A stretch of 64,000 nucleotides of DNA from Octopus vulgaris (taxonomy: Eukaryota): positions 30,690,001-30,754,000 of the forward strand of contig OX597829.1 in assembly GCA_951406725.2 (NCBI GenBank), given 5' to 3'. Both the position numbers and the translations under genes were made by a program. The notes under the pieces were generated by a model. It was given only the letters and a program-made list of their open reading frames with translations. It searched no databases and was not told the DNA's origin. Shown one piece after another: positions 33,923-42,313 of this stretch; the stretch's first letter is position 1, and each line of letters begins with the position of its first letter.

Positions 33923-36900
33923 ATGTTTGAAAGCCAAGATGCTATAGATTTAAAACAACTGAAGCATTCAACTGGAAGAATACCAGAAGTGAAACATTTA
34001 CCTTTGAAGCTATCAAAACTTGCTGTGCATAGTAAATGCCTCAATTGTAGGATGTGTGTCAATATACTTCGAAAGCATGCCATTAGGAAGCCTTTTAGAT
34101 CTGATACAATTTACTTCCCTAAAAAGCAAGTCAGACACATAAGTATATACAGTCCTGTGCATTACAGTTTGAAAAATGATCTGGTTAGAAAATGTAGCAA
34201 TAAAATCTATATACCCAAAAGAAATGGCTGCACAGAATATGCAGCTAGGAACATGAAAACGGGAAATGGTTACCAGTTTGAAGTGATTAGCAAATCATTT
34301 TGTCAGATATTCCAAGAAGACAAAGTTTCTACACCAGACATTGTTTTCTATTCTGTGGGCTTCACTGTTTTGTGTACTTCTGGCTCTGTATATGTTTTGC
34401 ACCCAAAACTAAATGTCTCCCACAAAAAGTTGCACTTCAGGAGAATTCTCACTGCAAAGCACCTAAATTATTTCAGATTAAAAATATGGCTAAAGACCAA
34501 AAGAAATCTAATGTTTAAAACATTTAACTCACAAGGATTTCCTGAGAACGATACTAAATTTTTAGTTGGTAATAAAGACGAGATATGTAATCAGCCTGAC
34601 CTGGAATGTTTTCAATGTTTAGCACAGAAATACTCTAAAATAATTGACTCTTTACCAATTAATATTGATGAATTGAATCTGTGCCACAAATATAGGAACA
34701 GTGTACCTATCAATGAATTAAACAGCACAAAACACTGCATTGCTTGTTTTGCAGTGTTTGTCAATGATATTTTTGAAATAATATTAGATTTCTGTCAACC
34801 AACTTTGGAAGTAATTATCATATTATTGATCAATTTAGAATTTCATGTGCCTTTCCTTTTAAAAGCACAGGAAAATGTAATTGAATTTTGGGATGGATTT
34901 TACATCGAGTATTTGCAATCTTTAGTTATGAAAACGATCCAGCTTCAAAAATTAAATTTGAAATTGGGTAATTCCTCTTGGAAAATGTTTTTTTTAATGA
35001 CAGATCTAATTATAATCACCAGTCTTAATGTGAATGAATTGAATTACCTATTAGTGATAATCTTGCCAGAAGCTTTTGGTGCTTTTGAAGATTTTCCTAG
35101 GCCCAAGATGACTGCACATATATTTGTTGGTAATGGCATTTGTAAGATACATCAAATGTTGCGATATTTAAAAGATAATGTCTCTTCATTTGACGTGTGT
35201 ACTCAATATAATGGTGTGGGAAATTTATGTGATAGGTTCTCTGAAGGAAACCATTCATCATCAAAGGTACCAAAGGAGCACTTTAAGCCTTTAATTCCAA
35301 GTAATATATTGGCCCCACCAGCATTAATAATGGATATAAAAGCTAGATATCTTTCCTTTTTCAGACAGCTATTTTGTTATAAGTTAACCAAACTAATAGA
35401 TTTTATTGCTGTTTTGGCAGTGTCTGATGGTGCCGAAGCCAAAATATATTTGCTGATAGCAAATATATTCAAAGCTATAAAACTAAGGTTGTCACCAGTA
35501 GCTATTAAACACAGAAAGTTCTGTTTTAGAAATAGTCTTCATATCAAAGCTTATAAATCATTCAGTAAGATTTATCTTTGTAAGAATCTGTTTGATTGTT
35601 CACATGTTTATTTGCAAATTAAATTATTTGAAAAGGCAGCTGTGCTGATGATTATATGGAAATCATCAGTTGCATTTCCTTTTGATCCATTCAAACATGC
35701 ATTTCTTACAACAAACATTCTTTTAAACACAAAGGCTTCTGTTGAGAATTTTTATTCTACTTTTGTTAATTATAAACATTTCCAACAAGGATTCTTTTTT
35801 TATTCAAAATTATACATTAAATCAGGAGTAAAAGAACAAAGTTGTTTTGAAGAATTTACACAGAGTTTAGAGTGGGGGAAATATGGGATAAAACATGTAT
35901 TTTTAAATATGAGAATTAAAATCATGAAATTCTGTAAATTTAATGCGAATATGTTAATGATTATGGCCACAAGGTATCTTTTGAAAAGTGTTCATCAATC
36001 AGACATAGTCAACAAACATGAGATGTTGCCTTCAGATATTTTACATTCTTTAAGTTATGAAAAATATTTATCATTTGCTAATCATTTAAGAATTTTAAGT
36101 CAGAGTTTGTTAAATTTATTCACTTCTCTGATTACAATACATACTATCACTGATTATGATTCCTCAAGAGACCTATACTGTTCTTTACCCAACTGCAGAT
36201 ATAATACTCAATTTTTATGTGCAATGAGGTGTGTAAGATTTGGTATGGGTTTCAGATTAATTAGATTTCAGCTGTGGTTAGATTTTCCATTTTTCAATTT
36301 ACATTTAGAAAGAAATGAACAATTATGTGCTGATACACAATTGAACCCATCTCTGTGTATTGGCCATGATAAAATAAGTAGATTATCAATGTTGAGTATA
36401 ATCTGTAAATACTTCTCATCGGTAGAACAAACTAAAATAAAATTCCTAACTTTTTCTTTGATTAAAACGTATAACATTTCTAGAGTATTTACTATCGATT
36501 ATCATGTAACTGTTTTTCATTGTGATGGGTTACATATAAGAAAACAATTTAAAAAATGTCTACATGTAGGAAAAACTGGCCCAAATTATCCTACCTCTTC
36601 AGATAAATATAAAGAGTTTTTAAAAATTTTCTGTAACTTTTCTATTTGTGATAAAACCTCTAAGTTGAAACTATTTGATCCAAAGCCATTGCATAATTAT
36701 GTTGCAAACAAAGAAACTTCACAAACAATGTCAGTAGTTAAAGGAAATCATTTTGGAGACTTGTGGGGAAATTCTGTCAGTTTGAAAGAACTTTTGTTTG
36801 GCATAAAAAATAAAACTAATTTTCTAAAATCAGACTTATTTTTAAATACTTCTCCAGCCAAGCTGCTTTATCTGAAGTCTTCAACAATGCAATTTTTTAA

Positions 36901-37788
36901 AAACTTTTTAAATGAAATTCCAATCTTAAATGTGACATATACTTTGTGTATAATACCTGTTGAGAGTTCTTCAAAGCCAAAAGAGAATCAGTTCTTTGAT
37001 GTACCATGTCACCCTACAAAATCATCAAAGCACAAATCTTTGAATGAATATCCATCAAAATCGGAAAAGACTGCACCTTCTTCTCTGACTGATGTTCAAA
37101 AAAAATCCGGCAGTCCACACAGCAGTTCCAATTACAGACAATCGCATACACAATCAGTGAGTTGTGCAACTCCAAACATGTGCAACAATGCACCAGCTGA
37201 CTTCAGTTTAGTACCTTCTCTGCCTTTCACAGCGTCGTTAACGGACGAAATAACTATTAAAGAATCTAATCACAGCTTCTATTTACCTGAGATGGACAGC
37301 ATGATGCCAACCGGTAAAACATATGTACCAATAGACATGGCTAACATACCAGTACCAACTTATGGTTTCATGAAGGATTCCCATTATTATGGAGGAGATA
37401 TGTATTTTGATAATGGCCAAGGATTTTTATATCCACAACCACCTCCACCACCACCAACTGCAGCAGCAGCAGCAGCACTTAAAAGACCAATTATCCAGAG
37501 AGCAATTCCATATTTAGACATGAATAATATTAGTCACCATCAAGCTGTGAATTTTCCTCCACCTATCACAAATGGATATGAATCCTTTACTAGCAAATTT
37601 CCAAGAAAACCAATTCCTCATTTGTCAGACTCTTCACTTAAGGAAACTTCTATGAGACGAAAAACCAAAAGATATCAACGAAAATTTTCTGCTTTTCCCC
37701 CTGATCCTGAATTTGAGGCAGCTTTCCGCAGAACGATGGTCGAACAGTTTGCAACTTTCACAAACTACCCGTTTGAGTTTAGCAAATG
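33923..37788 (+). CDS. Giant coding exon of an orphan protein ending in the first half of an NXF1-like TAP-C (UBA) domain
   Basis: 1289 stop-free codons in very AT-rich DNA. The end, MVEQFATFTNYPFEFSKW, aligns by eye to NXF1 [18 protein letters not shown]. The apparent stop TAA (37790-37792) is part of the donor TG|GTAAGA. The 5' boundary is uncertain: ATG at 33923, an in-frame TAA at 33887, and candidate acceptors ending at 33815 and 33893. Confidence 0.8.
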
Positions 37789-40235: not shown

Positions 40236-42254
40236 TATATATATATATATGTAATGAGACCGAAAATGGACAAGAAATTAGTAATTTATTTATATACAAT
40301 GTTACATATACTTATGGAACATTATAAGATGAAGATAGACTCATACATCTGTTTCAAAGATTTGGTGACTTGTTGGTGTTATTATGCAAACAGGCATATA
40401 TACCTATAAAAAGCTGGTAATTATACTCAGCAAAATAAGTGTAAACATTTTTGCCAACTTGCATGATGCATGAATAATTTCTTGGTGGAACTATTGTTCC
40501 TTCTAACAAGAACATGTGACAGTTGCAGCTTGAAGATATTTAAGTATCATTCTTTATGTAAGTTGTTAATTTCTTTTTGCTTATTTGTTATGTATAATTA
40601 TTGCTCCACTATATATTCTTGTTTGCATAGTATGCATTATAATTGACTAGTCACTGATTGATTGAAACAGTTGTACACATCTCATATAAAAGAATTACTC
40701 TTGTTCTGATGGACTAAATAGACATTTTAGCCTGTTTAAGTAGTTAAGATAGAAGAATCTGATCAGTCTGAACACTAATTCAGTACTTACCTGTACCACA
40801 CTTGTATGTACACTCCCACTATACACGTCACACACACGCATACACACATGCACTGTCGTGGTTGTGTGCTATGAAGTTTGCTTCTCAGCAACATGGTTCT
40901 GGGTTCAGTCCCACTGCATGGCACCTTGGGCAAGTGTCTTTTACTATAGCCTTAGGGCAACCAAAGCCTTATGAGTGGATTTGGTAGATGGAAACTGAAA
41001 GAAGCTTGCCGTATATATATGTGTGTTTGTCCTCCACCTCCACTTGGCAAGCAGTGTTGGTTTGTTTACACCTCAGTAACTTAGTGGTTTGGCAAAAGTG
41101 ACCTATAGAGTAAGTACCAGGATAAAAAAAAAAAAATCCTGGGATCAATCTGTTTTACTGAACCTTACGAGGTGATGTTCCAGCATGGCCACAGACCAGT
41201 AACTGAAAAGCAGGAGCAAGTGTTTTCTGCTGTAATCTTGGTGAGCACTATATTGTTAAGTGGAGTTTTTAGAATTCAATAAATGGAAATTACTCAGATG
41301 TCCTACACATGCACGCACACACACACACACATACACACGCATGCACACACACACATGCATATGTACAATATATTTGCATGTGCCAGTGTGACTGTCTGTG
41401 TTATTAATGTATTTCTACAGTGTTTATTGTTTTTCTGATGTCCAATAACTTAGCTGTTCAACAAAGAGATCAATGAAATAAGTACGAGACTGAAATAGTA
41501 CTTGAGTTAATATGACTAGCTAAATGTTTGAAGGCAGTACCTCAATATATTTATTGAAACCAGTAAAAAAATATAAAAGAAATTTTTAAAAATTTTAATT
41601 GAGACAAGTATTTTGTCTCTGAGTTTTCGATTTCCTGTCTTTTATTCTTTTTTTCTCTATGACATTTTTCAATCTCATCTTTTACCCTCAGATATTAAAC
41701 TTAGCATTAAACACAATGACCTCACTTAGTAATAGCTATCTTCTAGTCTAGACAGACTTGGAAAGACTAAGACCATTCTCTCTCTCTCTCTCTCTCTTTT
41801 CATTAGGCTGACAAGTGAAAAAAAAATTACTATAGAAACAATGTGGTATATTTAATTTGTTAATGAACAGAATTAGAAGAATAATACTTCATTGAAATAT
41901 AAATTCTCTTTTGGTAGTGTCATTGAACCACTAAAATATTTATTTGTACAATTATATCAAGTTCTGTATTATTATTTTGTAATATTAGATATATTATTAA
42001 ACAGCAAATTCATTTAATGTACATCTAAAACTTGGTCTCTAATACTCTAATTCATTGTACATGTGAGAATTCAGTTGCCGTGGTGTATATCTATGGTCTG
42101 ATCACTGATATTTCACTGTATCTGTTGGTCAGTTATGCACGTATGATTCCTTGTACATCAATGACTTGGTGACAATGCTAAATTGCTTTTTTCTTGTTGA
42201 ATTTGTTTAATTTTTTTTTTTTATTGTGAATTAATCTAAGATTTTATCCAACAG

Positions 42255-42313
42255 GTGTTTGGAATGGTCTCAGTGGGACTACGGGAAAGCAGCACAAACG
42301 TTTATATACAATG
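42255..42313 (+). CDS. 59-nt exon encoding the second half of the NXF1-like TAP-C/UBA domain
   Basis: Acceptor TTTTATCCAACAG| and donor ATG|GTGAGT. After one base it reads CLEWSQWDYGKAAQTFIYN, versus human NXF1 [19 protein letters not shown]. Its phase completes the TG|G Trp codon from the donor at 37788. Confidence 0.8.

Follow-up and report, generated by a model that had tools for sequence, protein, structure and literature searches.

A predicted octopod gene in which a giant exon is spliced to the first three helices of an NXF1-type TAP-C domain

NXF1/TAP/Mex67 (human structures 1OAI and 1GO5) carries RRM, LRR and NTF2-like domains in addition to a UBA-type TAP-C domain with a fourth helix. 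RNA binding was located by Aibara et al. (PMC4330389) in RRM, LRR and NTF2L and was described as unimpaired without the UBA domain. Batki et al. (10.1101/609693) reported that the loss of either phenylalanine-glycine (FG) pocket abolishes nucleoporin binding of human NXF1. Drosophila Nxf2 (SFiNX/PICTS/Pandas; 6OPF, 6IEW) keeps RRM-LRR and NTF2 and binds Nxt1. According to Batki et al. (10.1101/609693) and Zhao et al. (10.1101/608273), its UBA domain contacts a helix of Panoramix with the surface that faces away from the FG pocket; the domain is set apart from that of fly Nxf1 by V800 and I827, its FG pocket is closed by E814-K829 and L825, and helix 4 (D837, F840) contributes to the surface for Panoramix. 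New machinery for RNA silencing and RNA export has repeatedly come from NXF paralogues, and the characterised cases cited here come from flies and keep the whole NXF body. TAP-C without the NXF body occurs elsewhere, so this architecture recurs: the fungal protein KAK5127428.1 from Meristemomyces frigidus and one unnamed protein have TAP_C matches without NXF RRM, LRR or NTF2 Pfam matches. Here we describe such a case in a window of 64,000 nucleotides (nt) of Octopus vulgaris DNA (contig OX597829.1, positions 30,690,001 to 30,754,000). As read from its sequence, the window gene is a spliced octopod gene with a predicted product of 1310 residues that ends in TAP-C helices 1-3. The window protein has the CL...WDY motif in common with NXF1/TAP/Mex67, but it lacks the RRM, LRR and NTF2-like domains and helix 4 and carries about 1260 unrelated residues upstream. 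Because RNA binding lies in RRM, LRR and NTF2L, it has none of the NXF RNA-binding parts. It differs from the fungal and the unnamed protein, which have four tandem, mostly complete TAP_C repeats and are of an unrelated lineage or unknown source.

The window consists of AT-rich animal DNA with many simple repeats and contains 38 frames of at least 120 codons. By far the longest frame outside simple repeats, 33890-37792 on the plus strand, has 1300 codons between stops, 1289 of them counted from an ATG at 33923; the probability of meeting no stop at this base composition is about 1e-44. The TAA stop of this frame (37790-37792) is embedded in a splice donor, TG/GTAAGA, at 37788/37789. A 59-nt exon follows downstream with an acceptor CAG/G at 42254/42255 and a donor ATG/GTGAGT at 42313/42314. 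The 1289-codon frame, both splice sites of the join and the 59-nt exon had been claimed in an initial annotation of the window and were found as described. The gene extent of that annotation, up to 42313, had to be revised: the 59-nt exon ends in phase 1, so that the transcript continues beyond 42313, and an acceptor at 42551 completes Gly-Ile-stop, matching the end of the Octopus sinensis gene model. The first AATAAA downstream of the predicted stop lies at 43027. A second candidate donor, GTATGT, in phase 2, was seen 4 nt into the following intron (42314-42323); it is used by no model. The predicted 5' untranslated region contains two tiny upstream ATG frames. An alternative candidate acceptor from the acceptor scan, at 33893/33894, could let in an upstream phase-1 coding exon.

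Orthologues were found in octopods. A search of 5.8 billion proteins gave 4535 candidates, two of which were kept, namely Octopus bimaculoides LOC106884196 (96% identity) and a protein of Argonauta hians (42%). O. sinensis LOC118767288, which sits in the same cluster as the O. bimaculoides protein, differs from the window protein in 7 of 1289 residues. In the giant exon, identity was 99.5% to O. sinensis, 96% to O. bimaculoides and 45% of aligned residues 1-1230 to Argonauta. The join from 37788 to 42255 is made identically by all five database gene models, among them XP_036367523.1 (O. sinensis), XP_014790927.1 and XP_014790928.1 (O. bimaculoides) and GAB1604533.1 (Argonauta hians). The junction is a predicted one and rests on these gene models. 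Their last exons vary, encoding GI (by way of the acceptor at 42551), DFS, EIEFF or a 43-residue tail; the DFS, EIEFF and Argonauta last exons were not located within about 121 kb downstream. The term orphan, used in the initial annotation, is apt outside octopods but not within them, where Octopus and Argonauta have orthologues, and from these sequences the protein looks lineage-restricted. The named database hits include no squid, cuttlefish or nautilus, a blank limited by database coverage and sensitivity. When shorter relatives were searched for, neither of two candidates was accepted; blanks of such word-based searches are weak because this one missed the sister protein described below. 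Databases including RefSeq already hold the proteins, with automatic annotations as 'uncharacterized' or as 'TAP-C domain-containing'. The four locus identifiers were not found in the main texts of papers, and 'nxf' was absent from the papers listed in a literature survey, supplements and subscription journals lying outside both searches.

The spliced proteins matched Pfam TAP_C (PF03943) above its cut-off of 21.3 bits, with 27.4 bits (E 2.5e-6) for three of them (P0003 from O. sinensis, P0001 from O. bimaculoides, and P0005) and 26.6 bits for the Argonauta protein (P0002). The unspliced frame gave no TAP_C match, and the 59-nt exon alone scored 19.1 bits, below the cut-off. Positions 2-35 of the 49 profile positions were matched; positions 36-49, representing helix 4, were not. 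Thus, the Pfam check suggested in the initial annotation was positive, and its proposal of a TAP-C/UBA module on novel sequence was borne out for the module and the approximately 1260 unrecognised residues ahead of it, but not for a complete domain. In a sequence search of the PDB, human TAP provided the top four of six matches (E 0.0015-0.0067), and the spliced end aligned with it without gaps, as had been claimed, over 39-40 residues. AlphaFold2, run on the last 125 residues with a 10-row alignment, predicted helices at model residues 77-95, 99-108 and 113-123 with a predicted local distance difference test (pLDDT) score of about 85-92; the upstream 60 residues scored near 50, and residues 1186-1240 about 45-52. 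The model superposed on 1oai with a root mean square deviation (rmsd) of 2.0 over 47 residues. It aligned without gaps to human TAP 562-608 and to fly Nxf2 781-831 (51/51, rmsd 1.4), which fixed the residue register.

The window gene is not canonical NXF1, a possibility that was ruled out by a complete four-domain gene elsewhere. The RRM, LRR, NTF2 and TAP_C families all matched one locus, in order, on contig C4 at about 38.90-38.92 Mb, which is the full octopus NXF1. On contig C16, which carries the window gene, the sole genome match was the 59-nt exon (one of eight for TAP_C, none of three for NTF2, 15 for LRR and five for RRM), in line with the earlier observation that RRM, LRR and NTF2-like exons are missing nearby. 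The window protein had no Pfam match to RRM (Tap-RNA_bind), LRR or NTF2-like domains. We compared 570 translated segments of the NXF1 locus with the 264 kb that surround the gene. Among the matches listed, which covered the plus strand and queries with at most three matches, the only NXF1 coding segments were those of the UBA exon and of the last exon; such exon-wise searches are weak for diverged exons and may miss them. Two further statements of the initial annotation failed. The gene cannot be called an NXF variant like Nxf2 or Nxf3, since it lacks the RRM-LRR-NTF2 body that those keep, and the intron expected in NXF1 genes at the K/CL position is absent from octopus NXF1, in which helices 1-3 lie within a single exon, whereas the window gene has one. 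The evidence gathered here connects the gene with neither piRNAs, transposons, gonads nor nuclear pores. A short CL....WDY-type TAP_C match on contig C10 (3514402-3514455, E 5.4) has no evident exon context and is probably due to chance.

A HMMER search with the last 125 residues against 1.84 billion representatives returned six matches: the two orthologues, a 401-residue O. sinensis protein, two proteins with four tandem TAP_C matches, and one repeat protein (P0007), which was dropped as a tandem repeat matching the low-complexity part. The 401-residue protein is encoded by a sister gene, newly noticed here as a family member, with the orthologues O. sinensis LOC118762906, O. bimaculoides LOC106881497 and Argonauta Ahia01_000352700; the last came from a search in which two of six candidates were accepted and is 71% identical. 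In O. vulgaris, the sister gene is a second TAP-C gene on contig C4. Its product begins with a Ser/Lys/Arg-rich part, followed by a Pro/Asn/Phe/Tyr-rich region, which the low-complexity region of the window protein (residues 1031-1240) resembles in composition, and then by TAP-C. No usable match for it was obtained in the ESM Atlas. Within the 40-residue core of the domain, the window protein shares 40 residues with its Argonauta orthologue, 25 with the sister protein and 15 with octopus NXF1, and the identity of window and sister proteins to NXF1 is 13-15 of 40. Outside the domain, no significant similarity between window and sister proteins was detected. Both genes occur in Octopus and Argonauta, and both have a phase-2 intron before CL and a Pro-rich region before the domain. 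The sister gene differs in its several exons, its short product (401-416 residues) and its last exon, which in the main model encodes an Ile-Pro-x-x-Ala-aromatic end resembling NXF1 helix 4.

In the sister gene, the phase-2 intron is followed by an exon of 61 nt, whose phase-0 end coincides with the position of the last NXF1 intron. This shared intron site argues for a partial duplication of the NXF1 3' end at the DNA level. A DNA-level copy of the last NXF1 exons would have founded the family and been duplicated again, probably before the split of Octopus and Argonauta. Because a compact sister has the same diverged domain, the module belongs to a small family, and the giant exon is specific to one member. 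In the window copy, the donor after the helix-3 exon lies 2 nt earlier than in the sister (59 versus 61 nt, phase 1 versus phase 0), and helix 4 is present in none of the five gene models. No [IVL]PxxA[FY]-stop frame was found on the plus strand in about 121 kb downstream. We regard this history of NXF1-tail duplication, sister gene, donor shift and missing helix 4 as very probable. One O. bimaculoides isoform of the sister (P0012) reads into the last intron and likewise loses the helix-4-like end. At 53122-53166 of the window (plus strand), an acceptor-preceded, stop-terminated frame of 14 codons was seen, in which seven of 12 residues are as in the helix-4 exon of octopus NXF1. It scores highest (28, against 20 for the runner-up) among 1038 candidates of this kind within 708 kb, lacks the Pro, and overlaps a dispersed repeat with its 3' end; being in phase 0, it cannot join the phase-1 donor at 42313. 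This frame may be either a vestigial exon or a chance match.

The giant exon contains two islands that are conserved in Argonauta. Residues 1-70 are identical in 50 of 70 positions, including a CxxCxxC motif, and residues 235-385 in 103 of 151, with hydropathy peaks of 1.7-1.9. The exon received no assignment from Pfam, from the ESM Atlas (residues 1-400) or by structure; the predicted fold of residues 1-440 (three-row alignment, pLDDT 28.6) was uninformative. Pfam matches to Ribosomal_L27e and RGS (E 0.04-0.3) were dismissed as fortuitous. With hydropathy peaks of only 1.7-2.0, membrane anchoring was set aside. No paralogue of residues 1-1030 exists in this genome by our searches, in which one of 11 and one of seven candidates matched, both being the gene itself. 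The frame has been kept open: neutral evolution to the Argonauta distance produced a mean of 49 stops, and none of 200 runs was stop-free. O. sinensis and O. bimaculoides differ in 54 of 1240 residues. At a synonymous divergence (dS) of 0.123, the published autosomal value (Coffing et al., 10.1101/2024.02.21.581452), neutrality predicted about 292 differences together with 20 stops; with the divergence (d) set as low as 0.06, an assumed value, at least 124 differences still arose in 300 neutral runs. The implied ratio of nonsynonymous to synonymous divergence (dN/dS) is about 0.15-0.3, lowest in residues 1-400.

The functional product might be little more than the C-terminal 100-250 residues, with the giant exon mostly a passenger that stays open solely since a stop ahead of two introns would lead to decay and remove the domain; a short form might also arise from an inner start or acceptor. 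The inner methionines Met1124, Met1128, Met1150 and Met1244 are indeed kept in Argonauta, and a strong acceptor-like site lies at 37233. Codon-position bias in residues 1-400 and 401-1030 did not exceed that of stop-free random DNA, the observed value being reached in 180 and 49, respectively, of 500 null sets. Substitutions in residues 1-400 relative to Argonauta were no more conservative than neutral ones (113 of 200 neutral runs), and conservation by residue type was uncorrelated with BLOSUM45 (rho -0.08) and only weakly correlated with the neutral model (rho 0.36, p 0.12, assumed background frequencies). Yet within Octopus residues 1-400 differ at seven of 400 positions, against a neutral minimum of 33 (300 runs, d of 0.06), conservation is clustered in islands (none of 2000 permutations matched the observed block variance), and substitutions over residues 1-1230 were somewhat more conservative than expected (reached by three of 200 neutral runs), which makes a mere passenger improbable. 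Highly improbable is the explanation that the junction or the unbroken Argonauta frame is an artefact of gene prediction. Two gaps in the Argonauta model, of 35 and 14 residues, may be predicted introns hiding breaks, and the models disagree in their last exons; but the splice sites are canonical, three species have the same protein sequence at the junction, splicing recreates a domain for which neither half alone scores above the cut-off, and the sister gene has the same intron. Residues 1-1030 look like translated AT-rich DNA, and both lines of evidence agree with a recent extension, perhaps arisen de novo, on which selection is moderate. About 1030 residues would have been gained in one exon, perhaps from non-coding DNA, and would now be open and under purifying selection. 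In this sense the exon is a candidate case of non-coding DNA recruited into protein on a very large scale.

As to function, the most probable of the readings considered, though at somewhat less than even odds, is that the protein works as a nuclear partner-docking adaptor rather than as an RNA exporter. Because the window and sister proteins lack the RNA-binding parts of NXF1, docking would be the likelier role for both. The positions of Nxf2 V800 and I827 are occupied by Phe1279 and Ile1306 in the window protein, by Phe and Ile in the sister and by Gln and Leu in octopus NXF1; those of E814, K829 and L825 are occupied by Trp1293, Asn1308 and Thr1304 and, in octopus NXF1, by Gln, Leu and Val. 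The window protein thus resembles Nxf2 in hydrophobic residues at the former and an altered FG-pocket rim at the latter, and differs from it in lacking the NXF body and helix 4. Aromatic residues number 11 in the 40-residue core of the window protein, nine in the sister and five in octopus NXF1. The aromatic core and the changed positions would fit a partner-binding face and a doubtful FG pocket. An aromatic-rich face of helices 1 and 3 might bind an amphipathic helix of a partner, comparable to fly Nxf2-Panoramix, and the basic stretch before the domain might direct the protein to the nucleus. Several points weigh against this proposal. Octopus NXF1 has Leu at the I827 site, which leaves a single diagnostic position, out of two, to tell the family from NXF1; the Nxf2 L823 position is Ala, as in NXF1; and the Panoramix-contacting helix 4 of Nxf2 has no counterpart. 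Foldseek ranked TAP first, but with E 0.068, and no match reached E 0.001; a fold Z of 6.5-6.9 was shared by TAP, FAM100B, Dcn1 and TDP2, 1oai standing at Z 6.5. As judged from the model, the fold by itself points no more to TAP or Nxf2 than to generic UBA domains, so that the comparison with the NXF1 UBA proposed in the initial annotation yielded the three-helix UBA fold but no preference for TAP. For the long part, the selection estimate borrows a genome-wide dS rather than that of the gene itself, and Argonauta keeps only five of 31 Gly and one of six Trp residues, a pattern of change unlike that of a folded domain.

Two other roles for the domain have to be weighed against docking. It might still bind FG nucleoporins and tether the long protein or a cargo to pores, or compete with NXF1 there. 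Cys1290, Trp1296 and Asp1297 occupy the positions of human C588, W594 and D595, which we take to be FG-binding residues (the match to W594 and D595 had already been made in the initial annotation), human A602 is replaced by a Thr that does not exceed the Val of octopus NXF1 in size, and the TAP UBA leads the Foldseek and sequence matches. Against FG binding stand Trp1293 and Asn1308 at the pocket-closing sites, which suggest a bulky rim and the loss of a hydrophobic wall, the missing helix 4, and the finding that human NXF1 requires both pockets, an NTF2-like pocket being absent here. On balance, we consider FG binding unlikely. Ubiquitin or a ubiquitin-like tag would be the ligand if the domain without helix 4 were an ordinary three-helix UBA, and the model superposes on the UBAs of TDP2, Dcn1, p47 and TNK1 as well as on TAP. 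The generic UBA and UBA_4 domains (TDP2, Dcn1, p47, FAM100B) have the same predicted fold with tied Z, but the profile of the window protein is TAP_C: four spliced proteins had no match to UBA, UBA_4 or UBA_8 at E up to 10, although the octopus NXF1 exon gave weak ones. Classical ubiquitin-binding UBAs carry an MGF-type motif in the first loop, which is lacking here, and the sister keeps a helix-4-like end yet has the same surface changes. Ubiquitin binding thus appears rather less probable still.

The docking reading can be carried further only as a long shot. Octopods would have made a pair of TAP-C-only proteins from the NXF1 tail and, independently of flies, turned the nucleoporin-binding domain into a docking site for the helix of a partner, within a nuclear complex for RNA retention or transposon silencing, and one of the pair would have shed helix 4 by the 2-nt donor shift and gained about 1000 de novo residues, among the longest such extensions, now under selection. 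A docking domain that is frozen at 40 of 40 residues while the rest falls to 45% identity could serve as bait for nuclear complexes, of RNA or of chromatin, that are peculiar to a lineage among cephalopods with their transposon-rich genomes, and a pair with and without the helix-4-like end offers a natural test of the role of helix 4. The features of the locus are collected in Table 1.

Table 1. Coordinates of the features of the window gene (window positions) and of its sister gene
Feature	Position	Strand	Basis or remark
Predicted 5' untranslated part of giant exon	33816..33922	+	Polypyrimidine-AG acceptor upstream; sequence and acceptor scan
Giant coding exon, residues 1-1288 and two bases of Trp1289	33923..37788	+	Sequence, gene models
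Conserved N-terminal island, residues 1-70, basic	33923..34132	+	Argonauta alignment
Second conserved island, residues 235-385, hydrophobic	34625..35077	+	Argonauta alignment, hydropathy
Pro/Ser-rich low-complexity region, residues 1031-1240, likely disordered	37013..37642	+	Composition; pLDDT
Basic stretch resembling a nuclear localization signal (putative), residues 1244-1254	37652..37684	+	Sequence; 10/11 identical in Argonauta
TAP-C helix 1 and first half of helix 2	37706..37788	+	Profile, PDB alignment, predicted fold
Intron, phase 2, GTAAGA...CAG, 4466 nt	37789..42254	+	Position and phase as in sister gene; absent from octopus NXF1
59-nt exon: end of helix 2, WDY loop, helix 3	42255..42313	+	Ends in phase 1; the sister exon is 2 nt longer (61 nt) and ends in phase 0
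Intron, phase 1, GTGAGT...CAG	42314..42550	+	Sequence
Predicted last exon: rest of Gly, Ile, stop (42556-42558)	42551..43032	+	Agrees with ends of two gene models (P0003, P0004)
Sister gene, several exons	Contig C4:143341890-143395597 (143.34-143.40 Mb)	-	

Elsewhere in the window, several repetitive elements were observed. A remnant of a Tc1/mariner-type transposase lies on the minus strand at 9793-10868 in two overlapping frames, with DUF4817/helix-turn-helix and DDE_3 matches. Translated stretches at 117-509 and 43893-44264 are nearly identical and probably represent a single dispersed repeat in two copies. Very long TA-rich simple-repeat arrays at 55024-57502 and 3078-3869 yield spurious Tyr/Ile open reading frames. 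Fragments resembling the reverse transcriptase of long interspersed nuclear elements, as judged by eye from translations, occur on both strands at 61165-61955. A perfect 111-nt inverted repeat at 63134-63676, with 321 nt between its arms and TA-run flanks, resembles a miniature inverted-repeat transposable element.

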